DNA of 63,237 bases, counting the filler, from Dugesia japonica (taxonomy: Eukaryota): NCBI GenBank assembly GCA_001938525.1. It is 6 parts of 6 records of this genome, joined end to end, with 100 filler letters (N's around TTAATTAATTAA, not from the genome) between each part and the next. Parts side by side here need not be neighbours in the genome. Positions count along the whole stretch, not along the records: positions 8,458 to 25,014 come from MQRL01624501.1; 5 more parts are not named here. The stretch is one strand, 5' to 3'. Both the position numbers and the translations under genes were made by a program. This document shows, one piece after another, positions 4,331 to 54,959 of the stretch. How positions within the stretch are numbered: the stretch's first letter is position 1; each line of letters opens with the position of its first letter. The notes under the pieces are model-generated. The model saw only the letters and a program-made list of their open reading frames with translations, did no database searches and was not told the origin of the DNA.

Positions 4331-4896
4331 CGAAATAACATAATGAATGCTCCAACTTTTATAATTCGAGCATTCCGAAAATTTAACATTGGAAATTATA
4401 TACATAGATATTATCGAATTCACATTTATAACACGGCACAAACCTTTTCTTCAACCTAATATTTTACTATACCAAATTTTTATTTAAANNNNNNNNNNNN
4501 NNNNNNNNNNNNNNNNNCGGTCACGCCTGATTTAAAGGATCAAGTATAAATTATGACTAAAGTTTTCTCATTCAACTGTTACCATCAAGTCAATATTTAC
4601 GATAAAAATAATTAATCTACTAAATGCTATTTTCATAATAATTTTAATACTCTAGGTCAATTCATGGTTTGCCAATAGACGTAATAGAAGCGATAACACA
4701 AAACCAAAAAAAAATCGAAAACAATTACAAGTACGACTTTACAAATTTGCACAAGAGCTTGAAAAAAATTCGGAAGGCCGTTTGAAAGCGTATGATATTG
4801 CTACAAAAATCAATAAAATGATTGATGAATATCTATCATGAAATATCAATAAATATTTGCTATTTATTTCACTAATTACAAACTTCATTATTATTA

Positions 4897-5631
4897 TCAA
4901 TGTGCTTGTTCAAATAATTGTTGATAAACAGCTTCATCCCTTTCAATCATTCTCTTATTGCACGCCAACATTCGATTAGTTAAAAAACCACCCAAAAAGA
5001 AGTTAAGCACTCCTAAAGTAATAAAAACATTTTTCCCTCGTTTAACTGATAGCTTAATTATATCATAAAATTTATAATACTCAGTTAATTTTGGTATTGG
5101 ATATGTTTTTTCTACTTTAGACACCGGGATGCAAATTAAAACAGATAACCACAGTGGTACAAAACTTCCAACTATTGTCTAAATATAGTGTTTAAAATTA
5201 ATAACAGATATAAAACTCACTTGTATAACAGATCCTCTTAATTCCATACACAAATCACAAAGGTTTAAATTCGAAAGTATTTTCCTACTAATTAAAGTAT
5301 CAGTACACATGACAGAAATTAAAAGTGGACAAAAAGTCCCGCCAATAAAAGTTGTGGGTATTTTTTGATATTGTAGTTGAAAGAATCGTCTTATATACAT
5401 ATGAGTAACAGAACTCGTTAAGAAAGTTAAAGAAGCCAAAAATTTTGAACCATGGCGAAGACTCCAAACATCCTCTTGAGGAATCCAATATTTCATTCTA
5501 AGTGAACGAACATCAGGTACTTCTATTATACTAATTGGTTTAGCATTGGGAGGAAGATTTTCATTAGAATTTCGAGTTATTATTAAACCGAAAAGACTAC
5601 TTAGTTTTATATCATCAGGTACATCAGTCAT
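4897..5631 (-). CDS. TMEM126: TMEM126-family mitochondrial membrane protein (2 exons: 5631-5221, 5178-4897; about 230 aa)
   Basis: A 42-nt GT..AG intron (5220-5179) joins the two ORFs in frame. Hydrophobic segments plus ILSNLNLCDLCMELRG...IQ..VGSFVPLWLS match the TMEM126 CxxC..RG motif. Start ATG at 5631 is inferred. Confidence 0.75.
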
Positions 5632-6349
5632 TTCAAAAAATTGCAATTAATAAATCTAAAATAGAATTAATACTTAAAATAAATAAAATTAAAAGATTAT
5701 CCAAAAAAATAAAAAAACGTAACTAATTATTTTTTATTTTACTTGGCAATATTGGTTTAATTAATAAAATAGAATTAATTATGTTTCTTTACTAAATAAT
5801 AATATTGTTATATTTAATAATTAAAATTTAATAACTTAGAGTACACATTTTAAAGTTATTGGATTTGAATTATATAATAAAACAATAATTTAAAAATTAC
5901 GAATAAGGAATAATTTCGAATATTATTATGAAAAAGTGTATGAAAAAAAAGATCTTTCAATTCAACATTAAAATTTCTTCAGTAATATTATCTTAGCTTT
6001 TAAAAGACTAATTAAATAATTATTTCATCAAAAACCCATTAATACTTAACATAATAATTTTACAATTTCAAATATTATTAGAATAACTTTTGAATTTAAC
6101 CATTATTCTCATTTTTAGGGTTTAAATAAATTTAAAAATGTAGATCGAAAAGATTTTCTTAGATTTCTTGTTAAACATTTTAAAATAGTTTATTGTCGAA
6201 AAATTGTATGACTAACCAGAGAATTCATTTAACTTAGGCTTATTAATTTATTGACTCAATAATAGCACTGCTAGCACAGGGCCTAGGAGAGGCAATGCGA
6301 GGCCTAAGACCATATTCGTTTTCAAGGCTCTTTTTTGAAAAAATAATAG

Positions 6350-8357
6350 TGTTGGGCTCCTAGATTTTTTATGTTAATTTCATCTATTTTACTTTCATTT
6401 CTTTCTTGAGTATCATTGCTAGAGGTAAATACACAGAAGCCGGCATATATTTAACAATGCCTCGTGAATTGTTCATCCACCCCGAGGGTTATGCGGGACT
6501 ATGCGTTATCCCATCTTATGATTTTCAATTTTGATTGAATTCGGCTCAACTTGTTCTTGTGTTATGTATCTTGATTAACATTATAGTCATGAAACAACAC
6601 TCGAACACATTTGTTAAGATAAAACTTTATTTCAATTTATTTCATCATTCATACAGGTCAATAACTCCACTGGTTTTCTCTTTTACCATTTCTTTCTCTG
6701 ATTTTGACACTTGCGTCAACATCCGCACAGTTGCTATTAACAAACCCTCTCTATCTACGTATGATTTGTGGATGTCGGTCCTCGCGCGACACGTATGTGA
6801 GAGAGCAAGATTCCTTTTTTTTCAGGCGCTTATTATTTTCTCTGAGGAAGATATTCTTCTTTCGTAATTCTACAATTTCATTCTGCAACTTATTGTGCAT
6901 AGAGCACCACTACTTTCGGATAATGATAAAATATGAAATTCATAATTAATATTGATCTTTTTCAGAGATGTTATTAAATCAACAATGAGTTTATCTTTTT
7001 ATATTATTGTGGAAAAATGATATTAATTTTCTTCAGATTAACAGCAAAAAGTCAATGAAAAACTGTACTGCATTTTAACACATAATTACACGGTGGTTTC
7101 TAGAATACTATCAGTATCGTCCAATGATACCAGAATTTGTTCGAGAATCGTCTTGACTTTGGTTGAAAGTCGCTCAGATAACTTTGAATATTCTTCTGCC
7201 TCTGTTTGAGTGGAAAGTATCGTCTATATTAGGCGCTGTTGTTGTCTGACCAGCTCTGTTGTTCCGACGAGTTATGTGACCAGTTCCTATCCCGCTTCCC
7301 GTATATATTTCAACAATATTTATCTGTCTCATTTTCATAACATCATCTCACAATACAGAGTCTAACTTTCTCATAATCACCTCAACAATATTCAACTTCA
7401 CACTGTCTAAATTCATGGTGGATTATCTCGTACGAAGATAACCGGCAGATTACGATCGTCATCACCAACAGAGCCAGCAGATAACGGTCCTCATCTCAAT
7501 ACAATTCTTTTAATTTACTTTGTGATATTTTCATATTATAATAGATAATTAATAAATAGTTACTTTCTCTTTTCTACGGGTGATGAGATTTAAAATAATA
7601 CTTGCTATTTTTAACAATAAATCATCAAGAGTTATAAGTGAATTTTTAAGACTGCTTTTCCACTGATTTGGATTTCCTTTTATACCTTACTGTATCATCA
7701 AATCAGATAATTTCAATTGTTAATTTTGGTTGAAAATTTTTATGATGATTGATGTCCAAAATTGAACGGTATTTATACTTAAGTTTAGTACGCCTTCTTT
7801 CTTCTCATTGGTCAATGCATATATTCTGATTTTTCTTGTGTTTTCATTGGACAAGATACTCAAATTCTGTCACCTGACTTCTTATTATTGGAAAAACATT
7901 TGGAATTCCAAAATTATTGGAATTTGATTGGTTAATTTTAAAATCCTTACAATTTCTTTCCTGATCTTACCATGATCTTCTGGTTTAGATTTTTGAAATC
8001 TATAATTTTTTCTGAACTATAATTTTCTTTACTGATAATTTTTTCCTTAACCGTAAGCCTTCTTTTTTCGATATTTCTGTATAAATTAAATTTCTTTTTA
8101 TAATAAATTATTTTAATTTATATAATTTATTCTATTCAATAAATTATTTGTTTTCTTTTCTTCATAATTTATTAATTGGATTTTCGATTTTCGTTTTTAA
8201 ATTAAATTTTAATCTAATTTAGTCGTTTTCTTTTATTAATTGATTTGTTAAATTATTTTCATCCTCTTCAATTATTATTTTAATTTAATTTTCTTTATTT
8301 CGCCTAATGAATTGATCGTTTTGTTATTGTTTGTTATTTTCTTTGTCTTCTCTATCT
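6350..8357 (-). mobile_element. Diverged partial copy of the unclassified TGTTGGG...CCCAACA multi-ORF element
   Basis: Starts TGTTGGGC at 6350. Minus-strand ORF remnants MHNKLQNEIVELRKK..LSHTCRARTDIHKSYVDREGLL (gene-B-like) and TTAPNIDD (shared with gene C, TAPNID). T-rich distal part as in the full copy; cut by the contig end. Confidence 0.6.
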
Positions 8358-8457
8358 NNNNNNNNNNNNNNNNNNNNNNNNNNNNNNNNNNNNNNNNNNN
8401 NTTAATTAATTAANNNNNNNNNNNNNNNNNNNNNNNNNNNNNNNNNNNNNNNNNNNN
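8358..8457. other. Artificial contig linker (N run-TTAATTAATTAA-N run)
   Basis: 100-bp spacer with stops in all six frames; recurs five times in the window. Confidence 0.97.
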
Positions 8458-8528
8458 TTTTCTTTATTTCTTTTTTCCGGTTACTTTTCTTTTTATTTCT
8501 TTTCCTTTAGGGGTGTTTCACCCCAACA
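8458..8528. mobile_element. Terminus of the TGTTGGGG/CCCCAACA element
   Basis: gtgtttcaccccaaca is identical to the end of the full-length copy (14681-14696). Confidence 0.8.
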
Positions 8529-9137: not shown

Positions 9138-10952
9138 GATCAGTCGATGAAATTTTAAATATGCAAACGAGATTGGAGAGAGAAGTGAATAAAATAAAAC
9201 ATCCAAATCCTAAAAACCCAACAAATCAAACAATCAAAAGATATATTCATCAAACACCTTGGACAATTTATATTGATTAACTTTGTTTTATATTTGGTGA
9301 TCATATTAATTCTGAAAATAATTATATCCATCTAATTTTATTTTATTATTCTACGAGCTATTAATTATTTCTTTTTTGGTTCAGCTGTTCTATTTAATTT
9401 TGTAAATAATATATTGAAGTTTAACTATATTCATAATTCTGTAAATAACAGTTATATATTTAATTTTATAAACATCATACTGAAGTTTTACTATATTTCA
9501 TATTTTCATTATATAGAATTCTGTAAATATTAAAATTTTATTTAAATTTTAAGAAAATTTTGATTTTGCATGTAAATATTTGTTTTTAATGAAATACTGT
9601 ATAAAGATTTTATTAATGAAGCAGTATAAATACCAATTACAATTATCAGTTTATCACACTTTTTTAAAAGCCTGTAAAACAGTTTGCTTTTTTATTAACA
9701 AAGAGAATAAAATATCCATGTTGGCACTGCAGAGTAGTGTAGTATCTTTGCAAACATATCATTCCAGCACAATGAGAAAAATGCTGTTAACAACATTCAT
9801 TTTCTGTTGTGATTATATGCGCTATCAATTTTCAAGGTTCACTACCCAATAAACAACTGTTGAATGTCTTTCATGAATTGGAAATGATAAAATGCACCAT
9901 ACTGCTTCATTGATACTAATTTAGCGTCTCAACTGATATTGGGGAATTTTATCGATGAATACAGTTGCGTTTTCCACTCTAAAAGCAACCACATTGCTTT
10001 CTTTGTAAGCATATTTACCAATCTACTTGATCAATTTCACCAAATGTCAATACAAGACATTGATGTATGCTTTGTATATTTTTTAGAGTAACTGTGTATA
10101 CGGTACAACCCACTGATTATTGACTTCAGCATCATAGTATCGTACTGTTAAATTGATGGTCGACAATAGAGTGGATATCCGCCAATGTCATTGATAGTCT
10201 TTGCAAGTAAGTCTCTTGAGTATCGTTTCGTGCAATTCCCAACAAACGTGCATGGTGAATTTCTGTTAAGTAAGTCACAGGGATCATGAATCATGATTTT
10301 GATGACAACTTGAAATAAGTTTTGATCAATGTCGTCATCTGTTATTTCTGCTAAGATAACTTGATCATTTTGATCTGGTGTGAATTTTTCGAACAACCGT
10401 ATTTAAATGTGTACATGTGGCAAACATTTTTTGCCATTCAATGAACTACAACAATATGATTCTCAAAAAACATAATGCTTGACTATGAAATCTATAAATG
10501 ATTTTAATTTTGGTTTGAACACCCGCGCGGAAATATTATGACGATCCGATGATAATTGTCCGGTTAACAAAAGTTCTTGTATTTAATCCCATGCAGGAAT
10601 GCATGTGAAGGTAATAAAAACAATTAAATGGCCATATACGCGAACATATGACAATACATTTTGTGCGTATTGATGCATATGCAGTTGACTCAATGTAAAT
10701 TTGGTCCGTAGTATTGTTGGGGTCCCACCTGAGTTGAATGAAGAAACGATGGCTGGGGAAAAGCAGCCCTCAGGGAAACCCTTTCAAGAATTTAGATCCA
10801 CCGCCCCAGGGTGGATTTTCAGTTTATGGTGGTTGACTTCGCTCTTAATGGGAGGTGCACACCCATAAACCTTTTAATTTGGGTTCATCATTTTCCCTTA
10901 TCTTATACCAACATTTAAATCAGTGACACTGGAAACATTTATTACAACAAAT

Positions 10953-11333
10953 TTACAACTCATCTAACACACTTGGGTCTAACCATTGGCCTGGATCTGT
11001 CGCTAAAAATCCGAAAGCTGCGACATCACCATTATCGTCCCAAGGGACCCAATCTGGGTTGCCAATATGGCGAGAAAGATCGGCGATATATTGCTTTAAA
11101 AAATCGATCTTTCTCATCAGCAACTGCTTGGTTTCGGCTTCCAATGCTTTAGTTTGGACCGCCCAGTTGCTTTGTTTGCGAACTATCAAATCTAGCTTTG
11201 TATAAGTTTGTCACGCTGGGCCAGGTGTCGCAGAAGGGCTCGGTCTGTTTTACGCTTTAGGTGACGTTCTAACAACAGCCGGCGCATGATGCAATGACAT
11301 CGGTGAAGACTGTTGAGGAAATGGATACGAGGC
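10953..11333 (-). pseudogene. Element gene A: orphan basic coiled-coil protein with acidic/aromatic tail (one frameshift)
   Basis: tttcag|TG CCT CGT ATC gives PRIHF..RRLLLERHLKRKTDRALL..KLDLIVRKQ..KIDFLKQYIADL..WDDNGD; homologs at 24507-24862 and 29681-30005. Confidence 0.7.
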
Positions 11334-11456
11334 ACTGAAAGAAATTAGATTAATATATCGGTAATTAACAGCGAAACTCAGATAAACAATAGGATAAGAA
11401 GTCTGAACTCATATAACCATTGAAGAATAGATTTATTTATAGAAATTAAAACAGAT

Positions 11457-11810
11457 TAAGTCCGGGGGGTTTGAGTACCCTTCTCGATCATCAATGACTC
11501 GAGAGGTATCTTTTCCCGGAGCAGTAAGATGTCGGTAACCAGTTTATTTTCTCGGTCATGGCTGGACCGGATAATTTCCGAAAAAGATTCAACCTGCTTC
11601 TTCCAGGCTCGTTCCTGCAGGTGTGAGGCTTCAGCTTACTTTTTGAAAGCGAGGCATTTCTTCCTATATCTAGCCACTTTACTATTGGCCGTTGCCATCT
11701 CTGCCTACGACGTTTGGCCAACTTATACAGATCCCAGGTGAGATCAAGATATTCACTGGTTTCTCGCAGCTTTTTATTTGGAGCCTGCGATTTGATCAGG
11801 GAGGAATGCA
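11457..11810 (-). pseudogene. Element gene B: orphan coiled-coil protein ending KGTQTPRT
   Basis: tttcag|tg acceptor; the conserved frame is SHLQERAWKKQVESFSEIIRSSHDRENKLVTDILLLREKIPLESLMIEKGTQTPRT*, with a homolog at 29340-29570. Confidence 0.65.
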
Positions 11811-11970
11811 CTGAAATATCATTTTTTATTAATTACGAAGAAAAACCAAAATCAGACAACAACTTAAAGTTACTGGAAACCGGAGTTTATCTTAATCTAT
11901 ACGTAAAGATATAATATAATTGAACTCTAAACAAGACATCTATTTATTCGTATTCTAAAACAAACAACAT

Positions 11971-12328
11971 TCATTGGTGATTAATGTTAGCGTCAATATT
12001 GGGTGCTGTATTTTCACTATCGGTCACTCCGGTTGGCTCCCTAACCCCCCGAGAGAAGGTTAGAGATAAAAGCCTGTACCGCGGGAGCTGGGGGTGGCAT
12101 TGCAAGCTGATATTGGAAGGGTGACGCAAGGGTGCGACCAGGACCTGTCCAAGTTTGATACTGTTGTCGCTCTCCAAAATCCCGTATCCGGGCGACGATA
12201 GACTCAACCGGGGGTAGGTTGGACCTGTCGGCCAAAATACCCGCGTCACGGTTGTGCGGGTTGTGGTGTCGCCGGAAAATTACCCGACGGGTTCATCTAT
12301 CTACTATCCGTTCCCATATATACTCCAT
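11971..12328 (-). pseudogene. Element gene C: GC-rich, Pro/Arg-rich orphan ORF
   Basis: ttttag|atATG acceptor; MEYIWERIVDR*TRRVIFRRH...MPPPAPAV...TAPNIDANINHQ*; AATAAA at about 11943-11948; one stop and one frameshift. Confidence 0.45.
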
Positions 12329-12424
12329 ATCTAAAACATGAAAAGAAAATAGTAAAACTTGACTAAAACAGCTTGAATAAGTAAAGACAATTTATATATA
12401 TGGTCATGACAACATTACAACGAC

Positions 12425-12652
12425 TTATGACAGAGTCTCTTTGGCAATGCAGTGTGGACAAGACAAAAAGCACTCCTCACCTAAATCCACTTTGCTGACC
12501 TGGGGGAACATTACTGCGAGACAGCATAGGTCAGTTTCATCTGGATGCTCAACTCCCCATTTCGTCAGTAAGTGAGCTATCAACTGTTTTGTTCGGGCGA
12601 TTTGGCGCTGCTGTTTTATCCAACGTAGCGTGTGACTCAATTCCGTTGGCAT
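12425..12652 (-). CDS. Element gene D: 75-aa Cys-rich orphan protein (CC...C..CPHC)
   Basis: Intact ORF with ATG 3 nt after a tctag| acceptor; a 42-nt candidate intron (12697-12656) lies upstream; IAHLLTKW resembles IADLLSRY at about 23010. Confidence 0.5.
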   Translation of the reverse strand: MPTELSHTLRWIKQQRQIARTKQLIAHLLTKWGVEHPDETDLCCLAVMFPQVSKVDLGEECFLSCPHCIAKETLS

Positions 12653-15031
12653 GAGCTAGAGAATGGAAAATATCAATCACAGTATATAATTCCTGACTTA
12701 GTCCTCTGAACAATTGGTCGTCACGGACTGTTATAGAGGGAAAATAATAATTAAGGGGGCGAGGTTAATTAAGTTCGTAGCCCCTTGTTAGGGAAATAAT
12801 AATAGCCATAACATAGTAATAATAGGTGTTACAATACGACTAGCAGTGAAAATGAAATTAATTTGGAAATAATACGAATAATCAACATAATGCACGAAGA
12901 TATAATGATTTTATTGGTAATAGTACGGTTAATAGTAATTATACAAGCAATCATAATCCGAGCTACTAATACATCCACAAATTTGCAGTTACTAATTAAA
13001 CCCCTAATAATATTAATTGAGACACAATTGATCTGGGTACGCCACTAATCACCATAATTATGATCATCGCACTATCCGTTATAATATTACCATTAATATT
13101 AATAGTAATCATGATGATGATGATGATGATAATAAATAAAATTAACCTAGATAATAATTATGAAAGCAATTTTATAATAGTAATTATAATAAGATCAATA
13201 TTTCTGATATTGATAATGTTGCTAGCAATAATATTATTTTATAAAATTCCGGCTGTTTGTAAAATTTCGTCTATGAGCTCAATTCTGAACTTTGAAAAAT
13301 CCCGCTGTTTAGGGTTGCCTAGTAACGATGATTATTTTCTGCTACTATCGGAATACACGCTGAAAAGTTTATGTGTGTGTTACCACTCGGTTAATTTAAC
13401 TGCAGAATAAATTTCTGGTATTTTCGTCATCACATGCAGCCACGCAGACATGATTGGGTTGGAAAAAAAATTTTGATACATGTGTGCGACTGAATGATAC
13501 TCATAAAATATTCGAATTGCTTTTTGGATCATCGGATCATGTGGTTACTAATAAATTTATTTAACGAATAAAGTTGCCTTTTTTAATGATTTNNNNNNNN
13601 NNNNNNNNNNNNNNNNNNNNNNNNNNNNNNNNNNNNNNNNNNNNTTTATTTCATTTTATTTAAACATATAACCATACTTACTATCAAAAATATTTGGCTA
13701 AGAATTTCTGCAACGGGTTATCTATTCCTCGCACAATGTTTGGAATTTATGATCGATTTTCGGATTGCTGATAACTTCAACTGATCAAAACGATTTTTTA
13801 AAATTAATTTATACTTCTGAATAAGTTAATTACTGTGTACGATACCTCCGATAGCTAATGCGCGATAACTGATTGTCTTTGGGTTTCTTTATGGATATTG
13901 ATAAATTTGCAGTTAAAATTTTCTTTACGGATTAAAGAATGAAATAAATTTTTTTAGTGGTTTAAAATGGTGTGTTTCTTAAGTTTTTTTTAAATCAGGG
14001 GTCCTTTTATAGGATTTTCTTTACACCCCAACTCCGTTGGTATTGGCCAGTTATTTTTAATTTAAAATAACNTGTTTACATTGGCTCCGATACTACCTTT
14101 CTGGAATTTTGCAAACTTTTCTGCAATTCCGTTGGTAGGTATTTTTGGATAATCATGCGAGCTTTTGTTCTTTGTTCTATTTTTATTTTTAGATCTCCTA
14201 TTGGTCCGATCTTGGGGATCCTGCAGCAGCCCTCTGGAAGGTGGTAAGTTTTCCTTCTTAGTAATTTCAACTGCATCTTGATATTTTCTTTCTGTATTTT
14301 CTTATCCTGCTTCTTTCCGATTTCCCTTAGCGAAGTTATTCAGATAAAACGAATTTTTTGTTAATTTCGCTTCTTTTTTTATTTAAAATTAATTAATATT
14401 TTTCGTCTGTTAATTGATTCTTTTCATACCGATTTTCTTGGTTTTTATTATTATTTAATAATTTTTCTTAATTCCGATACTGGTATAGGTTGTTTTAGGA
14501 CACTTAGTTTATTGACCCCATCTTCGATGTTATTTTATTCCTCTTTACAGATTATTTCCGTTACATTCTTTCCAAATTATAATCGCTTTCTTCTTTTGAA
14601 TTTCATACAAGTAAATTTACAGGTTCTATTTTTCTTCTTTGCCGATTCTGAATTTTTTGTCTTATTATCGTTCTTCCCGAGTGTTTCACCCCAACAGTAT
14701 GAAAATTTTTATAATTCGTTGAGATTCATATTTTCATCATTAACAACTGCATTACATAAATGAATGCACTCTTCGGAACACAACTTGGTTTTGATTTTCG
14801 CAAACATGTATTGATGGAATAATGTTCGACATGTTCAGACAAAAATTTCAGATTTTTCACAAATCATCGATCGATATGAATAGTGTTTCATGGCATTGAC
14901 TTTCATATTCGTTTCCTCGTTTGTGGATTTCTCATTATGATGTTGGAATGATATTCAACTTCTCCTTACCAAAATAAAACTGGATATTGCAATCCGTCGT
15001 ATGAGCAATGAATCTTTGAGATTCTTTGAAC

Positions 15032-16660
15032 GGTACCCAAACATTTCACATAAAACTTTTTCACATAAAATCTTTTCACATAAAGACTTTTCATATAAAA
15101 ATGTATAATAATATTAAAAAAATTAAAACAGTAAATCTTTTTTTATTTAGTTTTGTTATGAATAAAGTCGTTTTAAAATTATAATTAATTATTTTTTAAT
15201 TACTATTTCTTTTGTCTTAATTAGTGAATCGAAAATAAATTAATTATAAAGCATACATCCCGGTTGTTCCAACATTGAGACAGGAGACTCTGTCGGGCTC
15301 AACAGATTTCTNNNNNNNNNNNNNNNNNNNNNNNNNNNNNNNNNNNNNNNNNNTAAATATCCTATATTAACATAATAAATATATTAGATCAAATAAATAA
15401 AAGATCAGAAGAACAACAAATAAGAATCAACTTTTGAGTAATTTCCCTATGCTTAAAAGATAGTCACATATTTCTCCATTTTTTTACATTCTGCATAGAA
15501 TTGAACAATAATTTCAATCTTACTATTAATGAGAATATATTTTTTTTAATTGGATGCCTGATTTTAGTATGACCTGCCAGCAGTTGCGAAATCAAAATTT
15601 TATTATCTCTTNNNNNNNNNNNNNNNNNNNNNNNNNNNNNNNNNNNNNNNNNNNNNNNNNNNNNNNNNNNTTTTTGGAATCGAGAATGCCATCCTTCGAC
15701 AACATTATTTGTCCTCCTATATCCAGAAATTACAGAATTATAACAATTTCAAGTATTTACAGCAAATGTAGTAGTAATTAAATTCCAATTTTCAACATTA
15801 TTTTCTGCTCCAATATATACACGGTCAATATATTTCACAAAATCTTCTAATACTGGAGATGAACTGCTAAAAAAGTCTTTGAATACATCAATTATATCTT
15901 CAGGTATAAATGGAAGAGCCATATATTTTAACAAGGAATCTTTTATATCTATGCTTTCTTTACTCATATATAGCCGAGAAAGACCTTCTTCTTGGACTTG
16001 TCTTCATAGAGATTGATTAAAATGAAACTAACATCCTTTAACTCGACTATTTGTAAGGACTTCTGATATTGCGCTTATAGCTCCAATTTAAAAGTCCATC
16101 ATAATAGTCTCTGGATTAAAAATTAATCCATTGCTAAGTGCAGCGCTGATGATATGCTGATAAATTATTTTATATGTATGCTTCGATTTACGAAGACACA
16201 GAACATAAATAAAAGGAAAGCTATGCCCTGGAACTTCTCCGTGTATTGTATATAACCTTTTGACCATGATATCACAAGATATATTCATCAAGATATACTG
16301 TAAAATATTTTATTTAAGTTTAAATAATTAACATTTATATTTTGTAATTATATTATCTGGTATTTATTTAATAAATCTTTAACCTATTTGATCGAATTAA
16401 GCATCAACCATGCTGATGTTATTATCTGATATAATAATTTGATTTTTTTTANTTTTAATAATGCCTGATTTGTTCTTCTGATCTTTTATTTATTTGATCT
16501 AATATATTATTATAAGTTTTTATGTGAAAAAGTTTTATTTGAAAATTTTTTATGTGAAAAAGTTTTATGTGAAAATTCTTTGTGAAAATTTTTTGTGTGA
16601 AAAGTTTTTATTTGAAAAAGTTTTATGTGAAAAGTTTTTATGTTAAATGTCTGTGTATCC
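15032..16660 (-). mobile_element. Mutator-like (MULE) element with repeat-rich TIRs, inserted in the Helitron
   Basis: TIRs ggtacccaaacatttcacataaaa / ggatacacagacatttaacataaaa with subterminal ttttcacataaaa repeats; (c)tttgaac duplicated on both sides. Transposase motifs LYTIHG..PFIYVL..KSKHTY..IMMDF..VKGC*FHFNQSL..MALPFIP. Confidence 0.9.
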
Positions 16661-19146: not shown

Positions 19147-21639
19147 ATGGGCGACAGAGATAATTATAAAGTAGATATTGATATTGTTAAATATTACCAG
19201 TCATCCTTGAAATCGTATCAAAATGCTTCTGATAATGATAAATGTAGTTTAGCCATTAATTTTAGTTTGTCATATTAATTATTTTAAGATGATGAAGCTC
19301 TAAAAACTGTCGCATCTTTGAATAAGAATGGAATTAAAGTATGTTATCACACGTCAATATGTAAAATAATGGAACAATTTGTTAAAGATTTCCCTACTGG
19401 TGAGATAGTGGGATGTTTATTTAGATCTATAAATGCTTACTTGGANGGAGTTATTATTGGGAAAAATACTTCTCGACTTTTGGAAAAAGTACTCTTAGCA
19501 TGTCAGTCTAAAGATATAGCTCAAGATGATATAGTCCAATTTCAAAGCGAGAAATTCTGTGAATATATGTGGATTCATTATCCTGATAATCTAGAGAATA
19601 ATATCGGATCACATATAGTTAGAATGTTTTTTCAATTTGTTTGTGGCGTTTATGTGGGTATGGAGGGAATGGTTTATTCATCAAAATCAGTTGTCATTAG
19701 TAAACCCATGCAAAGTAACTACAAAGAAAAATTAGAAGATTTAATCAAACGATTTTTAATGAATCCTCAAATTAATTTATTAATTACTAACGAATATATG
19801 AGTTCTACTTTACAAATAATACTGGTTATTTGTTCTGTTCGTTGCCCGGAAAAATACGATGAAGTAGTTAAGCATTTAATGTATATTCTTTGTTGCATAG
19901 AAGATAAGGTTTCCAGTAAAAATTCTGATTTAATTAAGTAAGTTATATATCTATTTTTGTGATAAAATATATCGAGTCTTANTTTTTTCAATGAAAATAA
20001 ATAATATTGATGATATAAAGAGTTTAAAAATGTTTCCATTAAATTAATAATTAAATTTTTTCTAATTATAAATGAATAGTCCATAAATAACATTACAAAG
20101 CTTTAACTTAACCTCATCATATAATGTCTAACTCACTCAATATAATTTCTGTAATCAGGAAAATGTCCCTAAGAAAAAGAAGGACATTTCCTTGTATCTT
20201 TTACTAAGTAGTGATAAAAAGGTTTAATACGCGACAAAATTAATATTTAAACGTGGCAGTGCAGTTGAATTTCAATCCGAAACTNNNNNNNNNNNNNNNN
20301 NNNNNNNNNNNNNNNNNNNNNNNNNNNNNNNNNNNNNNNNNNNNNNNNNNNNNNNNNNNNNNNNNNNNNNNNNNNNNNNNNNNNNNNNNNNNNNNNNNNN
20401 NNNNNNNNNAAGCGATAAATCTAATAAAAAACAAAATCATTTCCCCAGAAAACCAGACAAAATAAGCATTTATCATTTTGACAGTTTACAGTATTTCATT
20501 CTCTTAAATTTTGTGACATTATGTAAGTACGCCATCTAATAATTTTATTCCTAGAATTCCAGAAAGTTTCCGCGACAAATATCAAAGTTTCTTTTTGGAA
20601 TGTTTAATTTACAATCTCGAAGATGGAATTCATTGGAAACGATTTGTCAAAAAGTATTTGAATTTAGGAAAAGAAAAGTTTATTGCCGATATATTTGAAA
20701 ATTCGAATTCTTGTGGATTATTTCGGTCAGCAATAATGCGTCTAACCTCCACTAAATTACTCTTGGAAATTATACAACAAGTCAAGTCTACCTTGTTTGA
20801 AATCAAGAATTTTCAGTGTGGAAATGTATTTTTGAAACTAATCATTGAATTTGTCAATAAAATTGTGCTTTTTACCGATGAAGAACAATCTGAATTACGA
20901 ACATATAAAAATTCAATTATTGAAGTATTTATTGAATTATTATGTTTTTTGGATAAATTTTAACTATTAGATTGTGCAATTTTTATCGAAAGATGATATG
21001 GGTGCAAATTCTTTAGTAAAATTTCTTGGTAATGGGTTAAATTTTCAAAATACTGAAGAAGACCGAGAAGAACAAGACGAAGAGAATTTCATTGAACATG
21101 AAAAGGTTTGCTCAGTTTGGTCTTCTCTTTTAATGCAAGCCATTTTAAAACGTTTTAAACCGATTCCTAAATCGATAAATAATTTATTTATCGGCACAAA
21201 AAGCGAAGAAATCGTTCAGTTGTGCTCTAATTCAAAAGCAAGTCGATTAATCGAAACATTTATCGATTCAGGAAATAATAATGTTCCCGATAATGTAAAA
21301 ATTCGATTTTTCGATTTGTTGAGTGCAGAAGAATTGTTGGAGATTGCATGTTCCAAGTTTGGAAGTCGAGTTATGGATTGCATTTATTTGTGTTGTCAAA
21401 ATAATCAATTATTCACAATTATCAAATCGAAATTAGAGTCGAAAAGAAATGAAATGAAACAACATAATATTGGAAAATATGTCGAATCGAAATTTTTCGG
21501 TTATATTCCCAAACTAAAAGGTAAAATAATGAAAAAATCGAAAGATAATGAAACGCAAAAGGTGGTTAATCAGAAACGGTCGGCACAAGTAAATGAAGTG
21601 AAAAATGGTTCACATTCGAAAAAACAGAAAATAAAATAA
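19147..21639 (+). CDS. NOP9: Nucleolar protein 9 (PUF/Pumilio-like repeat), multi-exon
   Basis: Exons about 19147-19243, 19289-19937, 20555-20924 and 20971-21639; extra exon(s) may lie in the N gap. PUF-like motifs GSHIVRMFF, ASRLIETFI and LEIACSKFGSRVMDCIY; lysine-rich tail. Confidence 0.8.
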
Positions 21640-24231: not shown

Positions 24232-25014
24232 TGTTGGGGTTCTACCTGAGTCGGAAAAGTGACTGGGGAAAAAACAGTCCTCAGGGGAACCCTTTCAAGA
24301 ATTTAACCCTACCGTCCCTTTGGTAGGTTTTCAGTTTATTGTGGTTGACTTTACCCTTGATGGAAGGTGCGCGCCAATAAACCTTTTGTTCGGGTTCTAT
24401 ATATTTTCCCTACTGTTTATGTCGTGATAATTAAANATCTTTGTTATTCTAAGCAGAACATTTATTTAATAACAACACATTTATAATAAATCCAAGGCTT
24501 CTGGATCTAGCCATGGTCAGGGGTAGTGGTGATGAAATTAAACATCGCTATATCGTCATCCNNNNNNNNNNNNNNNNNNNNNNNNNNNNNNNNNNNNNNN
24601 NNNNNNNNNNNNNNNTATTGTTTCAAGAATTCCACCTTACGTTGCAGCAAGAGTTTGTTTTCCTCCTCCAACGCTTTAGTTTGGGTTGCTAAGTCTGATT
24701 GGTTCTTCACGACAAGATCGAGTTTTTTAATTAATCGATCGCGTTGATCGAAGTGTTTTAATAAGGCCTTATCCACTTTTCTCTTTAAATGTCGTTTGAT
24801 GAGGAGACGGCGCAAGAGGCGATGACAACGCCTTAAACTAGTGGGGAATTGAATTCTAGGCACTGAAATAACAAGAATATTAGACAAGCATATGATAAAA
24901 ATAAGTCATTCGCTTATTAGTGAAAATCACAAAACAAAACAATCAAGTAATGAATAAAATAGATTTTTAGATTTACACAAAATTAAGGATGGAGATTGTT
25001 TTTAGTTTGTGTAC
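24232..25014 (-). mobile_element. Partial copy of the multi-ORF element (terminus, gene A, tail of gene B)
   Basis: TGTTGGGGT at 24232 with clear similarity to 10715-10910; gene A ORF 24507-24862; (G)TQTKNNLHP* at 25014-24983. Confidence 0.85.
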
Positions 25015-25114
25015 NNNNNNNNNNNNNNNNNNNNNNNNNNNNNNNNNNNNNNNNNNNNTTAATTAATTAANNNNNNNNNNNNNNNNNNNNNNNNNNNNNN
25101 NNNNNNNNNNNNNN
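25015..25114. other. Artificial contig linker
   Basis: N-TTAATTAATTAA-N spacer. Confidence 0.97.
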
Positions 25115-25445
25115 ATTTTCCCAACTAAATACACAGGAAAAATTGATAGCCACTTTGCCGTCTAATAAGCTTGAAAATTTTTCCCAACCAAATACACTGG
25201 AAAAAAGGAACCTCTCTTACATAATAATCTCGTGACAAGATTAATTAAATTATGTAACGCACACAAATGTGTGCTGTCGCCTATTTACATTAGAAAAATT
25301 TAAAAACAGTTATGTAATAATCNNNNNNNNNNNNNNNNNNNNNNNNNNNNNNNNNNNNNNNNNNNNNNNNNNTATGTAATAATCCGATTACGTCGGGGGG
25401 GGGCTCTGCATGTGTGCTGAGGCTGTGCGCTACTATCTATCTACT
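25115..25445. mobile_element. Polinton/Maverick-like terminal repeat end
   Basis: Ends ...gctactatctatctact, i.e. AGTAGATAGATAGTAG on the minus strand; Polinton TIRs begin with AG/AGT simple repeats. Confidence 0.55.
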
Positions 25446-26237
25446 TAATACTTTTAATGATAATTTATTATTTAAAATTAATAGTATAAGACAATTTGAA
25501 AAAGCATATAATTTTAAAATAAGGTTTTGGTTATCACCTAATTTTCCTTTTGGTTTAGATAATATAAATGATAATCTCAATTATGAAGATTTAAGTGGTA
25601 ATGGATTAACTATAAAAGATAAACCTGATTTAAGATTAAAAAATAAACCAGATGGAAAACCTTCTTTTGTTAGTCGTAATAAATGTTTTTATTTAAATAA
25701 AGGTGATCAGTTTATTTCTAATTATGAATTTAAAAAAGACTTTGTTTTTATTATTCTTTTTAATAGAGAAAGTTATTTTGATTCAGAAGGTGTGTTTATT
25801 AGAAGTCATAACGAGAGTAAAACAATAAGTCAAATCGGAACAGCACCAAATAACATCTTAAAATATCCAAATATATTAGGTGAATATGAAGATTATAGAA
25901 ATTATATATACTTGGATTATAAAAAGTTATATAAAGATAAAAAAGATAATTTAACTTTCTTTAATACTCCTAAAGCTCGCCCCAATTTATTATATATAGA
26001 AAAGAATGGAAATAGAATTGTTCTTAATCAAAATAATCATCAAAATCAACAGACTTTGACTATAAATAAAAATTTTGAATTTGGTAAATTAGTTATAGGA
26101 GATAAAAATACGAGTGGATTTATTTATGAGTGATTATGTAATGAAACTAGTGGTGGTGATAGTGAAAAAAATAATGCTAATATATTTCAAAAATTTATTT
26201 TCAGTTATAGTACAGAAGCAAGAGTAACTCGCGATGC

Positions 26238-26270
<33 letters not shown>

Positions 26271-26310
26271 AACAAGTGAAACAGTTATAAAAACAAAATA
26301 TTATAATTAA
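25446..26310 (+). pseudogene. Intronless virus-like ORF (5'-truncated), possible LamG/ConA-like beta-sandwich
   Basis: About 230 open codons, continuing past a TGA at 26131 to 26310; FWLSP...EDLSGNG resembles the W..DxSGNG start of LamG-like domains; abuts the next ATG at 26313. Confidence 0.45.
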
Positions 26311-26312
26311 AA

Positions 26313-26575
26313 ATGGAGAAAGATTATGATCCTATTTATCCTGATATAAATGAAATAGATAAAGATTTAGATCAGCCAGTAAGAACACCATCTTTAGCTG
26401 ATTATAAATTGAAACTTAAAACATTAAGAATTAAAGATTTTGAAAATGATTTATTATTCTTAACTGATAAAATAAATCATTATAATAAATTATATAGAAG
26501 ATGAAAAAGGTTTGATACAAGTGTAAGATATACTAATATTTTAATAGGAAGTTTATTTGGTGCTTACTTTGTGGT
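26313..26575 (+). pseudogene. Polinton/adintovirus-type small membrane protein (GasderminX-like) remnant
   Basis: IYPDI...LRIKDFENDLLFLTDKINHYNKLYRR*KRFDTSVRYTNILIGSLFG recalls the IYPxL..RL..I..L..E....LYKKYKR plus hydrophobic-segment pattern. Confidence 0.45.
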
Positions 26576-26649
26576 TAACTGTTAGATGAATGCAATTTTT
26601 ATCATTCGCTAATTTAGAATGAGTTTTCCATTCATTACTCATTATGATA

Positions 26650-26830
26650 GACTAAATTACTATTTATTGACAAAAATAGTGGTGCCAATACACAATGAAT
26701 AGAGAAGATTTGGGGAAAACTGAAAATTAAAATTGTCGGAATGAAGGGAATCTAGGGTACGGTTCTAGAGTCCTACCTAAACGAATGGGTGTGGAGACAA
26801 AATATTCAAATGAAAAGTCCTCATGCAATT
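26650..26830 (+). mobile_element. Merlin/IS1595-like transposase C-terminal remnant
   Basis: FIDKNSGANTQ*IEKIWGKLK...G...LESYLNEWVWRQN. Confidence 0.75.
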
Positions 26831-27109
26831 TTTTGTTTAATAAATTTATAGATTTTCTATCGTGTTTGTAGTTTTTTAATTTAAATTTTCATCATATTTT
26901 TAATTTGATCAATCCAATACATCATGTTTTTATTTCGAACAATCCATAATATCATGTTTTTAATTTAAACAACTTTGTCAAAAAAAGATGATCCAAATGT
27001 ATTCTTTATTTACAAAAAAATAATTTTGTTCCATGTGTAATTTTTATATAGATTATTTTGAGTGTATGTTATAATATGACATTCACATTAATTTTCAAGT
27101 ACTTTAAAC

Positions 27110-27255
27110 TTTAGTAATTACAATTATTGTGAGAATAATTGTTGGACTTAACCATTGATCGGATTTGAGATTTCATATAATTTTGTCGAAAATTTGAACT
27201 TTTTTACAAATAAATTTTGTTTTGATCGAAGCCTTATCTTATTTTAATGAAATTT
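27110..27255. repeat. Degenerate copy of the palindromic Penelope-like repeat
   Basis: Reverse copy of ccaacaattattctcgcaataattg followed by forward tttgatcgaagc.ttat; shared with 35440, 42985, 45965 and 62890. Confidence 0.6.
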
Positions 27256-27299
27256 TAAACTTTAGATTTACATATTTTTAAAACTTTATTGTTGTTACT

Positions 27300-27687
27300 T
27301 TCGCTTCAAATTAGTTCTTTGAGGTAGGTAGAACACAATATTGAAACTTTATCGACCAATGTTTCTTGAATAATGAATGACTCTTGAAACCAACGTTCAC
27401 AAATTTCATTAGATAATTTCTCAACTTCTTTTGTTTTTTCCAACCACAATTCTTTAGCATCGTGTCGCATTAGCATATAAAATTTAAACGATAATTACAT
27501 CTGATTGAACGACGCGAATTCTTTTGTTGTTTGAAGCCACTCTTTAGCTGTATCTGATGATCCATCAAAGAAACTCGGCTTTGGAATTAGAAATTTCAAA
27601 AAAAATTTTATCTTTCATCTTTTTCTTTATTTGCCACCGTGTACACTATAACGCGGTCGCCAGTTAGAACACAAGATTATTCCATAA
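27300..27687 (-). mobile_element. Gypsy gag remnant
   Basis: LIPKPSFFDGSSDTAKEWLQTTKEF..DAKELW..CERWFQESF; homologous to gag at 47670 and 60225. Confidence 0.75.
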
Positions 27688-28789
27688 TGTTTATTTATTA
27701 AAATTCAAATTATAATTATAAAACTGATAATATTTAAACAAAGTTTATATATCAATTTATAACTGATATCTAGTTGAGGTTAACGTTTATTATTGTTTAT
27801 TTTAATTAGAGAATTTAATTAGTTATTGGACTATGCATTAACTTTAAGTATATTAATTTTTTTATCAATGAATGGAAAATTTAGAAAAATTGGTGCCAAT
27901 ATTTTTCGTAAAAAATTTTAATAAATAATTATTAAATCTATATTGTATTAAATTTAAATTAATTATTCAATATTTATTTTAATTTAATATAATAAAAATA
28001 TTATAAATATGTTTTAAATCACGGACCTTCAACCTAAGCAATATCGCTCACTAGTGTGCGTTTGAAAATATTAAGTGAGCAGTGTGTGGGCGCTCTATGC
28101 ATGTGTGGGCATTAGCATTTGGACAATTTATCTGCGCCCCAAGCCCGGCTGTAACTAGTAACTAGCATATGTACTTGCATAAAAGCACTCACTCACATAA
28201 AAAAGCATCATTCACCAAATCCAACTACTAACCAACATAGCTGCGTTGTCCTAGTATATGTAGCGAGCTTTAAATAGCATTTGCTACATATATATGCTTA
28301 CGCACTTGTAAAAGTTCTATTACTAATAATTCAGCTAACACATACTCACAGCAATTTAAGGCAACTTACAGTACAGAGTTCTAGAGTAGTCATTCGCTTA
28401 CTCATTTTACAATGTATAGATAGTGCAACTCCTTTTTTAAAGTTTGCAGTTTTCTTTTGCTTTTATCATTAATACGTGAAATACGTATTAACAGCACACT
28501 GCGGGTAGAAATAGTGCTTGCTTGTTGACTTAAATACTTTACAAATAGATTAATTTGCATTTAATTATCCTCGATATTGAAAAAAGACATGCCATTAAAG
28601 AAGAAGCGTTGCCGGCAGTATTCGTAGTATGGACTTGTTAAAGCTCTTAATTATAAAGCCATCAGCCATGTAATTTGAGCGATAAACTATATTGTAAACT
28701 TTTTAATCAAGACAAACAGTGCTGCGATAGGATTAATTTAACGTTACCTAAATAAACCGTTAAGAAAGTTTCAATTAAAAGTGAGGATA

Positions 28790-30252
28790 CGTTTAATTAA
28801 TTTTCATTTTTCAGGGAGGAGCCTTTGGGATCACTATAATCATCGTTACCTTTATAAAATCTGGATTATTTCTGTTAACCCAATTTTTTAATCCGCGATT
28901 TCCATCCCCTCGTCTGTTTGTGTAACTAAGTTTAATAAATATTCTTTTAGTGAATTCAAGCTCAAACATGACGACCAGCTGGAAATTGTACAAGCTTGAT
29001 GATGGTACCAAAAGAGACAAACCGGTCACCAACCTGTTGAATGTCTGCATAGGCATTTTGGTAGACAATTCGAATATGCCCTTCAAAGAACATGCGGCTA
29101 AATGTCATCAGACCAACTGGGAGAGATCCATGGCCCAAAATTGGCGCTCAGGATACGTGAAGTTTACGGATCCTCACAGTCCCCACAAGCTTGGTTTAGC
29201 GCGGTTTACGAGCCTAATCCCTCGAACAAGCGGTATACCTATTGACTAAACGCGACAAATACAAGTGTTTGATTAATAAATGTTCGTTCATTTATTTATT
29301 CTTATTCTCGATTTCCTTTTGTTCACGTTTCCATTTAATGAGAAAGCGAAAAACCAAAACTACAAAAGTGGTGTCGGGAATAACGAGTTGAGGCCGAACT
29401 TTCCCATTTGCAGGAGAGAGTTTGGAAGGCTCAACTAGAGTCATTTGCAGAAACGCCCAGTTGGCTTCTTGAAAGAGAAAATAAGCTGGTCAATAATGTA
29501 ATGACACTACGCAAACGAATCCCACTCGAGCCGTTGTTAATCGATAAGGCCACCCAAACTCATAACTAACCTTACTCTGTGTTTTATGTGAATATATTTT
29601 CTCTTTGCTAAAACTTAAATTATTGAGTTTATTAAAAGTCTAACTGTTTTATTATCTTTTCTAACTATCGTTTAATTTAGTGCCTCGTATTCAATGCCTA
29701 AGAAGTTTGAAACGCTACCACAAGTTGTCGCGCAGTCTGCATTATGCCAAAAAATTTAAATATACACTTTTCCAAACACACTCAAAACAAATCGACTCAT
29801 CAAAAAGATAGAGACGGTGTCCAAGAAACAACTGGACATCGAAAACCAAATTGCCAACAGGTTTTTCAATAAGGTAAACTTTTTGACACAGTATACCGCC
29901 GATTTAACGGCGCAACAAAGTATTGCAACCTTAGAACCTTGAAATATTGACGACGACGATGCCGAGTTGAACTTTTTTGATGACAGGCCAGCAAACTGGG
30001 AATAAGTTTAATATTGTATATCTTATAAATAAATCCTGGTTAGCATTATACCGTTTAGTCTTCTCTATTATATTAAAAGGGGAATAACGAACCCAAGCCA
30101 AAGGGGTGCGAGTCTGTACTCTAACTACGGGTTGACAGTCAACGGCTCCATTCCGAAAGCCTAATTAAGGGAAATTATGTAAATTCTTCGCGGAGTTCCA
30201 CTGAGGACTGATTCCCAAGTCACAATTTTCTAGCATCCAACTGACCCCAACA
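28790..30252 (+). mobile_element. Partial copy of the multi-ORF element (5'-truncated; acceptor-led ORFs, genes B and A, terminus)
   Basis: ttttag|tg acceptor at 28950 and atttag|tg at 29680; gene B ends DKATQTHN*; gene A starts PRIQ; the copy ends gaccccaaca at 30252. Confidence 0.85.
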
Positions 30253-31379: not shown

Positions 31380-32961
31380 AATGTAGGTATATCTATTATA
31401 TAGTCTATGATGTTAAAAGGTTCCATTTTTATATGGTCTGTGTTGATTGAAGGTTTCATTATTAAATGTTCTATGATGTTTAAATGTTTCATTTATATTG
31501 TCAAAGTTGGTTAAAATGCGTCAAAGATGAGTATTATGTGGTGAATGATAGCTAAAGAATATAAAATATGACATGTATTGAATAAGTAACAGTTGCAATG
31601 GAATTTCTTACCATTTGTGTCTTGCTAATTATTGGCGATGATGACTGATTGTTTTTAAACAACTGTAGCAGTGTTCGATGTGTGACTGGGTGTGAATGGT
31701 TAGAATAACTGCTAATAGAAATACACATGTTGAATCACGCTTAGCGTGGTTAAAACTATGCAAGCTGTTTGATAAGTTCAATTGTGAACGGTTTCGAGCC
31801 TCTAATGGCTTAGGATTCGAGACAGAACTTGAACGGTGAGAATAATAGCTGCACTGTACATCTTTGGAGGATGCAATATGGTGGTACGTAAAGAAAACAA
31901 GACTATTACTGAAACAATGCATGAAAATAATTAATAATTTATTAGTAATTAATAACTTATAAAAAATTTAATTAATGACTTATTTCTTAGGCTCTACTCT
32001 TTAAAATTTCTATAATTTAAATATCTTTGAGCATATAGACTGTTCTGAGCATAGATATATAAACAATGCTGATCATATTAGACTGGTAGAACAATAAATA
32101 TTTGCACACAACTCACTTTTGCAACACAAAACCTGCATGGATGCAACACACAAACACGCCTCTCGGAACTTTACACTGCCTGAACAAAAAGACTAGACTG
32201 CTTGAACAAAATTCTACAAAAAACTCCCCCATCTTTTACAAACAATAATTTTTAAAAATTCACATACACACATTCCGGAAAATTACAACCTATACTTTTT
32301 CCCATTCTTTTTTCTACACTAGAAAAATAATCCTCATCCCATAAAAGTTTTTTTCATCAACACAAACTATTTACAAACCCTTAACATTCAATCTTAAAAA
32401 TTTAATAAGGCAAAAAGTCAACCAAAACACAGCACCATAAACCAACTCTCCAAAATTTATATAGTTATAATAATAATCATCATTAAACCCAAATTCCCTC
32501 AAATCCAACCAAATCCTTTTTAATCCAAGTACACCGTAAATAATCACCATGGTGTAATGCTGACCAAAGTCTGTAACCCTCAGTAGCATTTTAGCCGATT
32601 GTTACCTTTGGCAACCTATAGACCGATTTCGAATGCCCGGTCAAATACATAATCGAAATCAATAACCCACACACACAACCTGTCGCAAATTGCATATTTT
32701 CAATATACACTTACACACACCAGAACCAAAAAAGTGCATCCAAATGTACACTTGCACTTTAAAAATTCTTTTTTTAAAAAAATTAATTAATTAAAACAAA
32801 AAAATAAAAATTTTCTGAATTTGATCCTATCAAAACGTTTTAATCAATAAATCACATCAGAAATCAATCCGATCGGGAATCAATATATCGATCAACAAGG
32901 GGGAGGAGGGTTTGAACTGACCAATCAGACTAGTGATGTCATGCTGACCTATCTACCTACT
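31380..32961. mobile_element. Polinton-like terminal region (short repeats, shared block, AGTAG terminus)
   Basis: Ends acctatctacctact (AGTAGGTAGATAGG on minus); 31380-31990 is homologous to 37370-37920. Confidence 0.5.
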
Positions 32962-34793: not shown

Positions 34794-34893
34794 NNNNNNN
34801 NNNNNNNNNNNNNNNNNNNNNNNNNNNNNNNNNNNNNTTAATTAATTAANNNNNNNNNNNNNNNNNNNNNNNNNNNNNNNNNNNNNNNNNNNN
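34794..34893. other. Artificial contig linker
   Basis: N-TTAATTAATTAA-N spacer. Confidence 0.97.
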
Positions 34894-43599: not shown

Positions 43600-43699
43600 N
43601 NNNNNNNNNNNNNNNNNNNNNNNNNNNNNNNNNNNNNNNNNNNTTAATTAATTAANNNNNNNNNNNNNNNNNNNNNNNNNNNNNNNNNNNNNNNNNNNN
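43600..43699. other. Artificial contig linker
   Basis: N-TTAATTAATTAA-N spacer. Confidence 0.97.
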
Positions 43700-54958: not shown

Positions 54959-54959
54959 C

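Follow-up and report, generated by a model that had tools for sequence, protein, structure and literature searches.

A 4-kb TG…CA insertion in Dugesia japonica as an apparent giant solo long terminal repeat carrying a row of orphan genes

A stretch of 63,237 nucleotides of Dugesia japonica DNA (assembly GCA_001938525.1; six parts of six records joined end to end with filler, hereafter the window) contains, in the part taken from MQRL01624501.1, a 3982-bp insertion, termed E1, with a row of four small orphan open reading frames (ORFs A-D). We favour, at a probability of roughly 60%, the reading that E1 is a giant solo long terminal repeat (LTR) of an unseen Ty3/Gypsy-type retroelement, and that this LTR is itself a four-gene transcription unit. 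The evidence comes from diverged relatives of E1 elsewhere in the window, from selection on its ORFs, from the order of its candidate transcription signals and from a conserved, structured 3′ end. The insertion and its surroundings are as follows, TSD standing for target-site duplication:

10715-14696, minus strand: E1, an LTR-like unit with its genes on the minus strand, defined by its termini, its TSD and homology limits shared with other copies
10711-10714: left copy of the TSD, GTAT
14697-14700: right copy of the TSD, GTAT
14681-14696, minus strand: 5′ terminus of E1, with a 9-bp short inverted repeat inside 16 nucleotides (nt) identical to the terminus at 8528
10151-10710, minus strand: downstream flank, a decayed Helitron Rep with Helraiser and PF14214 matches
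14701-14957, minus strand: upstream flank, which we take, by resemblance, to be the preceding Helitron Rep segment

The sequence-only reading of this DNA had described an insertion with exactly these limits, length, termini and GTAT duplication, and all of this is borne out, as is its statement that E1 lacks reverse transcriptase (RT), integrase and transposase, none of which Pfam finds in its ORFs. The ends of E1 are TGTTGGGGT and ACCCCAACA, which form a 9-bp TG…CA inverted repeat (3′ member at 10715-10723, minus strand), and its length includes a 52-N run at 13593-13644 and one further N. As a chance control, TG-initiated 9-bp inverted pairs were collected across the window; a 4-bp TSD accompanies 4 of the 386, and 30 local shuffles gave between 0 and 8. 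The combination of terminal inverted repeat (TIR) and TSD alone is thus a weak signature in this AT-rich window, within chance. The boundaries are secure because the homology of other copies stops at the same termini and because the Helitron match begins at the junction: the flank at 10151-10714 matches Helraiser 493-682 (E 9e-29), starting exactly at the insertion, and positions 84-189 of PF14214 in Pfam. The further claim that a Helitron frame resumes on both sides holds for this downstream flank; the right flank (14700-14957), which presumably continues the Rep gene, gave no match in Pfam or the PDB; its reading is shifted by one base and meets a stop about 15 nt from the junction, so that the frame is colinear but not cleanly resumed. 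Likewise, the ends had been taken as an integrase signature, and while they do fit the LTR integrase-site consensus TGTTRNR…YNYAACA (PMC3601003), the 9-bp TIR with its TSD does not exceed chance here.

E1 is a member of a diverged repeat family, to which E2 and E4 below also belong; these in-window relatives, together with the splice and poly(A) architecture of E1 set out further on, go beyond what had been noticed from the sequence before.

24232-25014, minus strand: E2, with 3′ terminus, structured end and ORF D; interrupted by a contig linker
28815-30252, plus strand: E4, with ORFs B, C and D in the E1 order, structured end and 3′ terminus
8458-8528, minus strand: E3a, a 5′ terminus with 16 nt identical to E1, running into a contig linker
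6631-8357, minus strand: E3b, a tentative relative across the linker from E3a, with five CCAAT boxes and TATAAAAGG at 7684, followed by two decayed ORFs

TGTTGGG…CCCAACA sequence is found at all five termini in the window; three copies share the same CCCCAACA end and two the same 16-nt start. The 5′ end of E4 was not found, and profile searches detected no further copies in the window. Protein similarity of E3b to ORF C is weak (reached by 2/500 shuffles against E1 and 125/500 against E4) and, in a held-out profile search of 2755 pieces, not significant (E 1.4 and 5.1). The linkers (100 bases each: 44 N, a six-frame stop word, 44 N) lie at 8358-8457, 25015-25114, 34794-34893, 43600-43699 and 52766-52865, and adjacency across them is therefore uncertain. 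Three other assignments were rejected: a TGTTGGG at 6350 as the other end of E3, having neither a matching duplication nor 3′-end homology; 24232-30252 as a single element, since it would have two inverted 3′ ends, no TSD and parts on different contigs; and E4 as an LTR belonging to the gag-like remnant found at 27.3-27.7 kb, which has its own site resembling a primer-binding site (PBS) near 27660, identified by eye.

The four ORFs follow one another on the minus strand of E1:

12425-12727, minus strand: ORF A region, with acceptor-like sites at 12727 and 12655 and an open 76-codon frame with a Cys-rich C-terminus; present in a single copy
12041-12330, minus strand: ORF B, 95 codons with a premature stop at 12293-12295; its own ATG closely follows an acceptor-like site, AATAAA at 11948
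11456-11810, minus strand: ORF C region, with an acceptor-like site at 11810 and AATAAA at 11437
10953-11334, minus strand: ORF D, about 127 codons, frameshift near 11195-11200, starting at an acceptor-like AG/TG, AATAAA at 10943

Purifying selection marks ORFs B, C and D as real genes. Between E1 and E2, 60 of 94 residues of ORF D are identical, and the proportions of synonymous and nonsynonymous sites that differ (pS and pN) are 0.87 and 0.27 (Fisher p 5.5e-18); in E4, 30 of 91 residues of D are kept. For ORF C, comparison with the E4 copy at 29345-29566 gives 36/70 identical residues with pS 0.93 and pN 0.30. The E4 homolog of ORF B (28968-29246) has a Smith-Waterman score of 48 (0/500 shuffles) with 12/31 residues identical. 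Since amino-acid identity of 51-64% is retained between copies of C and D despite saturated synonymous sites, these two are selected genes. Protein-based alignment inflates contrasts of this kind for the weak pairs; for the strong ones, ungapped frame controls agree: identity in the coding frame is 30/46 for D (15/45 and 8/45 in the other frames), 36/72 for C (17/71 and 15/71) and 24/36 in a further comparison (11/35 and 9/35), or about twice that of the other frames, which are also richer in stops. ORF A was found in one copy. For B and C, longer ORFs than the conserved frames are listed in the same regions; the conserved frame of C, at 11456-11698, has 80 codons, a premature stop at 11636-11638 and a K-x-TQT end. 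The earlier description of four small minus-strand ORFs stands for B, C and D as selected genes, although all three are broken in E1, and for A as a putative gene. Every copy that contains coding sequence is either decayed or in part unreadable, which is the usual state of transposable elements (TEs), so selection acted on active ancestors and not on the present insertions. A non-standard genetic code was rejected, as the stops in the two copies of ORF C do not align with each other.

Outside the window, the searches made with the ORFs returned no homolog. The ORF D profile confirmed none of 592 candidates (lengths 22-207 only) from a 5.8-billion set and matched none of 1.84 billion representatives; the ORF C profile confirmed 0/7 candidates (lengths 40-140 only), and none of 65 pattern matches to ORF C in prokaryotic genomes was confirmed. 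Pfam, PHROGs and the PDB yielded sub-threshold matches only, mostly coiled-coil noise, the best being ExsD (E 0.007, to part of D) and phrog_34110 (E 1.7e-4, to a non-conserved long frame over C). For ORFs A and B the search covered only Pfam and PHROGs, with Atlas added for A: A has no family in Pfam or Atlas and a best PHROGs E of 0.063, and the best Atlas scores (0.87 for D, 0.77 for A) belong to unnamed entries and lie below the reliable range. ORF D has a basic N-terminal half and an acidic-aromatic tail, and its E2 version is predicted as one long helix, of basic/coiled-coil character, over residues 6-81 (predicted template-modelling score 0.38), while the fold prediction for B is unreliable (predicted local distance difference test 38). 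Both copies of ORF C end in K-x-TQT, an LC8-type anchor pattern of which a scan of six-frame pieces, 84,981 residues in all, counted 5 occurrences; a link of ORF C to LC8 is a lead only. A decayed ORF of E3b (7086-7223, minus strand) holds a TQT anchor as well.

Upstream of the ORFs, E1 contains the following candidate signals:

13990-14680, minus strand: A-rich region resembling the unique 3′ (U3) part of an LTR, with CCAAT boxes at 14204, 14084 and 14046; its U3 role is putative
14003-14011, minus strand: candidate TATA box, TATAAAAGG, with three CCAAT boxes upstream
13682-13985, minus strand: putative ATG-free leader exon ending in A, its start guessed from the TATA box
13676-13681, minus strand: candidate splice donor GTAAGT, the only one on the E1 gene strand, preceded by A

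The A-rich distal kilobase reported before is confirmed, 13645-14696 being 45% A on the gene strand. A CCAAT box had also been placed at about 13455; one does occur, at 13457, but a stronger candidate for the promoter of E1, to judge by its motifs, is TATAAAAGG at 14011. Two of the nine TATAAAAG sites in the window (14011 and 7684) have at least three CCAAT boxes within 250 nt upstream, an arrangement held by 0.5% of 250-nt windows. An acceptor-like site precedes each of the four ORFs. In all three copies, homology of ORF D begins at a pyrimidine-rich AG/TGCC in phase 1, and in two of the three there is no Met in the conserved N-terminal part; with no conserved ATG, D needs an upstream exon. 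Joining the candidate donor (A/GT, 13681) to the D acceptor would form A/TG, so that the start codon of D may be split between leader and exon; support for this is mild. A flatworm-type trans-spliced leader ending in AUG was rejected for D, as it would yield a short wrong frame. Of nine stops examined, six have AATAAA or ATTAAA no more than 30 nt away (background 0.158, p 8.5e-4), a count that leaves out two tentative ORFs, one with and one without a signal, and that becomes 7/11 if they are included. Within E1, ORFs B, C and D each have a poly(A) signal; A is without one and that of B is 92 nt off. On this arrangement, the four ORFs of E1 are probably alternative last exons of one leader.

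Downstream of ORF D lies one further feature:

10715-10900, minus strand: conserved, structured 3′-terminal segment, resembling the unique 5′ (U5) part of an LTR and including the 3′ short inverted repeat

Over this last stretch of about 190 nt, E1 and E2 are identical at 135/180 positions although their synonymous sites are saturated, and E4 retains identities of 96/177 to E1 and 100/172 to E2. Conservation of the two ends is asymmetric, covering 16 nt at the 5′ end and about 190 nt at the 3′ end. The three-way consensus folds at -26.8 kcal/mol, compared with -10.3±3.0 for class-preserving column shuffles, none of 1000 of which is as good, and it contains 13 compensatory pairs where shuffles contain 5.5±2.4 (2/1000 reach 13). 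Both sides change at 10 of the 23 pairs in three chosen helices, compared with 0-3 when the helices are slid, and at 10 of the 17 pairs in helices 1 and 3. Rfam gave no match over 5500-31000, and no tRNA was found.

TATA, AATAAA, better conservation of the repeat (R) and U5 parts than of U3, and conserved stem-loops are described as features of LTRs (PMC3601003). E1 shows these features in LTR order, which is what suggests a solo LTR: at the level of motifs, the three CCAAT boxes and TATA, the poly(A) signals and the conserved structured 3′ end run U3-R-U5, with the genes in the R position. The GTAT duplication around E1, the sole copy with both ends, agrees with an LTR. Solo LTRs carry TSDs of 4-6 bp.

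On this solo-LTR reading, a large parent would have been inserted into a dead Helitron by a retroviral-type integrase acting on TGTTGGGG…CCCCAACA ends, with a 4-bp duplication, and recombination between its two LTRs would have left E1 behind, gag-pol lying outside the window. The LTR may reach 4 kb because the gene cassette fills the stretch from the promoter to the last poly(A) signal. RNA polymerase II would start about 25-30 nt past the TATA at 14011 and produce a non-coding leader, spliced from the donor at 13681 to one of the four acceptors; each mRNA would end at the poly(A) signal behind its ORF, so that A, B, C or D could be expressed from one promoter, and the start codon of D would be assembled across the junction from the leader A and the exon TG. 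Their products would probably be accessory factors with the host or the element itself as target; D may be a dimerising helical regulator, and C may be helical and bear an LC8-type anchor. The structured last 190 nt may serve as a U5 cis-signal for reverse transcription or packaging, and in the full element the signals of the 5′ LTR would be read through to give genomic RNA. The more specific proposal, which we hold tentatively and put somewhat short of even odds, is that a retroelement lineage or a new integrase-mobilised class has a terminal repeat that is a multi-gene unit, with one promoter and leader, four alternative last exons with their own poly(A) signals, and at least one split start codon.

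A number of findings weigh against the solo-LTR reading. No PBS, polypurine tract (PPT) or gag-pol stands next to any of the five termini in the window, both ends are present in E1 only, and no two direct copies around gag-pol occur within the window; as no gag-pol, PBS or PPT was seen, LTR membership of E1 is unproven. With four poly(A) signals inside the unit, genomic RNA risks premature ending and would need a mechanism of read-through. The second promoter example, at 7684, sits in E3b, a tentative family member. An ATG-free stretch of 304 nt like the leader is matched by 61/2000 shuffles and 111/4010 window stretches, making it a 3% event, and it was chosen after the fact. GTAAG is absent upstream on the E4 gene strand and downstream of the E3b TATA, and a second phase-1 donor, with an upstream ATG, lies at 13090. 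A blind acceptor scan of E1 found 9 sense and 8 antisense sites, no strand enrichment, and missed the sites proposed for C in E1 and for both B and D in E4, so that the case for the acceptors rests on position. At the 3′ end, the structure was derived from, and tested on, the same three sequences, and single ends fold no better than shuffles (z 0.02, -0.50 and +1.54). The opposite strand folds equally well (-31.1), so that the structure may be one of RNA or of DNA, and on either strand. Many TQT peptides do not bind LC8, so that the anchor is insufficient alone (PMC6607443).

Of the other explanations, the best surviving, though unlikely, is that E1 is a DNA element, non-autonomous and mobilised in trans by a DDE integrase of Gypsy-like type (that of Ginger2 or of some unnamed relative), with its own promoter and gene row as selected cargo and its 3′ hairpins as DNA signals for the transposase. 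TG…CA ends with a 4-bp AT-rich TSD are known in Ginger2 (PMC2836005), the sole complete copy is single and TSD-flanked with no terminus adjoining a PBS or PPT, and the 3′ fold has no strand preference. The ends speak against it: Ginger1 has TIRs of 40-270 bp and CCGG or CCGT as TSD, compared with 9 bp and GTAT in E1, and Ginger2/Tdd has TIRs of about 50-180 bp or more (the Ginger2 families listed span 45-297 bp) and prefers RTATAY targets, compared with 9 bp and an empty site, AGTATG, that is not RTATAY (PMC2836005). Strongly asymmetric end conservation also argues against such an element, as does long purifying selection on cargo in subfamilies so far apart that synonymous sites are saturated, which is generally unusual for passive non-autonomous elements. 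The sequence-only reading had left the choice between a giant solo LTR encoding accessory proteins and an integrase-mobilised cargo element; the first limb is the one we favour, unproven, and as a Ginger the second fails on TIR, TSD and target.

It is improbable that E1 derives from a DNA virus-like element (Polinton- or adintovirus-like, or a segmented virus), as a segment that integrated or as a product of deletion, with the hairpins as a replication origin. The layout of one leader and many last exons and the small orphan proteins are virus-like, the covarying hairpins fold on both strands, and the window holds what we take, by resemblance, to be Polinton-like remnants. Polintons/Mavericks, however, have a 6-bp TSD, long TIRs and pPolB, integrase, ATPase and capsid genes, and E1 departs from them in its 4-bp TSD, its 9-bp TIR and its Pfam gene content, with no capsid, ATPase or polymerase; its PHROGs matches are weak, and the families matched are of unknown function (best E 1.7e-4, for the non-conserved long frame over C). 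That E1 is a free-standing satellite of LTR retroelements, all LTR without an internal region and copied by a helper RT and integrase, is a rather remote prospect: every copy in the window does lack an internal region, and E1 forms a complete transcription unit that has selected genes and a structured end, but one LTR without PBS or PPT has no known route to regenerate both ends, and the formation of a solo LTR accounts for this pattern more simply. Termini that arose by chance around a cluster of host genes, or a mosaic made by the assembly, would suit the roughly two TIR and TSD pairs per shuffled window and a linker-joined draft with N runs, one inside E1, but are largely refuted by the shared CCCCAACA ends and 16-nt starts, the Helitron match beginning exactly at the junction, and copies whose coding sequence is decayed or partly unreadable like that of TEs.

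Elsewhere in the window, decayed remnants of ordinary Gypsy elements (46240-47730, 1230-1535, 27300-27700 and 59570-60037) comprise RT (PF00078), gag-like pieces and the PBS-like site near 27660 (minus strand). MULE-like (Mutator-like element) transposase remnants, with weak PF10551 matches, lie at 15464-16309, just past the Helitron flank, and at 57851-59108. An AT-rich region at 25375-26504 (plus strand) has a 252-amino-acid open stretch and following ORFs with no Pfam or PHROGs family; we presume it, by impression, to be Polinton- or virus-like. A unit of 3.5-4 kb at 53500-57630 has inverted repeats of about 300 bp (81%) and no Pfam match, and pieces of it appear to resemble a Polinton packaging ATPase and minor capsid protein. 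A two-copy repeat (31416-32037 and 37370-37959, 69% identical) adjoins ORFs at 36756-37465, which we take to resemble the N-terminal region of a Polinton-type polymerase. Host genes are found at 19288-21639 (plus strand; Nop9-like, very divergent, with no match among longer proteins), 5179-5646 (minus strand; TMEM126-like, E 2.6e-5, just under the Pfam cut-off) and 51115-51886 (plus strand; pyruvate carboxylase, its best solved relatives mitochondrial), and a fragment at 4500-4840 (plus strand) is presumably homeobox-like, from its motif. A tandem array of about 75-90 copies of a 17-bp unit occupies 33290-34800. Near-identical duplications across 50-N gaps (16261-16451/16745-16935 and 35043-35312/35363-35630) are probably assembly overlaps.

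Solo LTRs are usually regarded as promoter debris without coding content, and such proteins as are known to be encoded in LTRs each come from a single gene of a vertebrate retrovirus. If the solo-LTR reading is correct, a 4-kb LTR with a selected four-gene cassette would amount to accessory expression like that of complex retroviruses in an apparent animal retroelement, and abundant solo copies would be a source of lineage-specific orphan genes; with a multi-gene terminal repeat, each remaining solo copy would still express orphan accessory proteins. It would also raise the question of how genomic RNA reads through four poly(A) signals. If no gag-pol parent exists, E1 would represent an unclassified class of mobile element. 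No description of a multi-gene LTR was found in the literature searched, which reached few subscription papers, and the available parts of PMC8532177 and PMC11410931 contain nothing on LTR-borne ORFs.

Among known systems, the solo LTRs of animal Metaviridae share with E1 the TGTTRNR…YNYAACA repeats, the order of TATA, AATAAA and conserved 3′ part, and a single TSD-flanked copy, but have training-set means of 174-695 bp compared with 3982 bp (PMC3601003). They differ also in that E1, whose parent was not seen, has between its candidate promoter and its U5-like end four protein-coding ORFs with acceptor-like sites and poly(A) signals. Ginger1 and Ginger2/Tdd likewise have TGTNR-type ends processed by a Gypsy-like integrase and a 4-bp TSD; they differ in their TIRs of 40-297 bp, their CCGG/CCGT or RTATAY targets and their integrase gene, E1 being without an integrase (PMC2836005). 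The giant Gypsy elements Burro (planarian) and Ogre (plant) have multi-kb LTRs, those of Ogre reaching 6.5 kb, and accessory ORFs, but, compared by description only, their extra ORFs and domains are in the internal region and not in the LTR (PMC6431247). The comparison with Burro made in the sequence-only reading thus holds for multi-kb LTRs and is otherwise an analogy only. In mouse mammary tumour virus (MMTV), the Sag protein is encoded inside the LTR and under selection, and solo LTRs exist, although there is one gene in an LTR of about 1.3 kb compared with four orphan genes in E1 (PMC11998498). The E1 genes, unlike sag, lie downstream of the LTR's own promoter candidate and most have a poly(A) signal; no sequence similarity between the two was found. 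Nef of human immunodeficiency virus, bel of foamy viruses, and tax and HBZ of human T-lymphotropic virus type 1 are comparable LTR-encoded proteins. The adenovirus major late unit expresses several alternatively spliced and polyadenylated genes from one promoter, and, like it and the nematode spliced leader 2 (SL2) operons, E1 has its ORFs in tandem, with a candidate 3′ splice site ahead of each and, behind most, a poly(A) signal about 90-230 nt before the next. Unlike those systems, E1 would have this layout, cis- or trans-spliced, within a mobile LTR-like unit.

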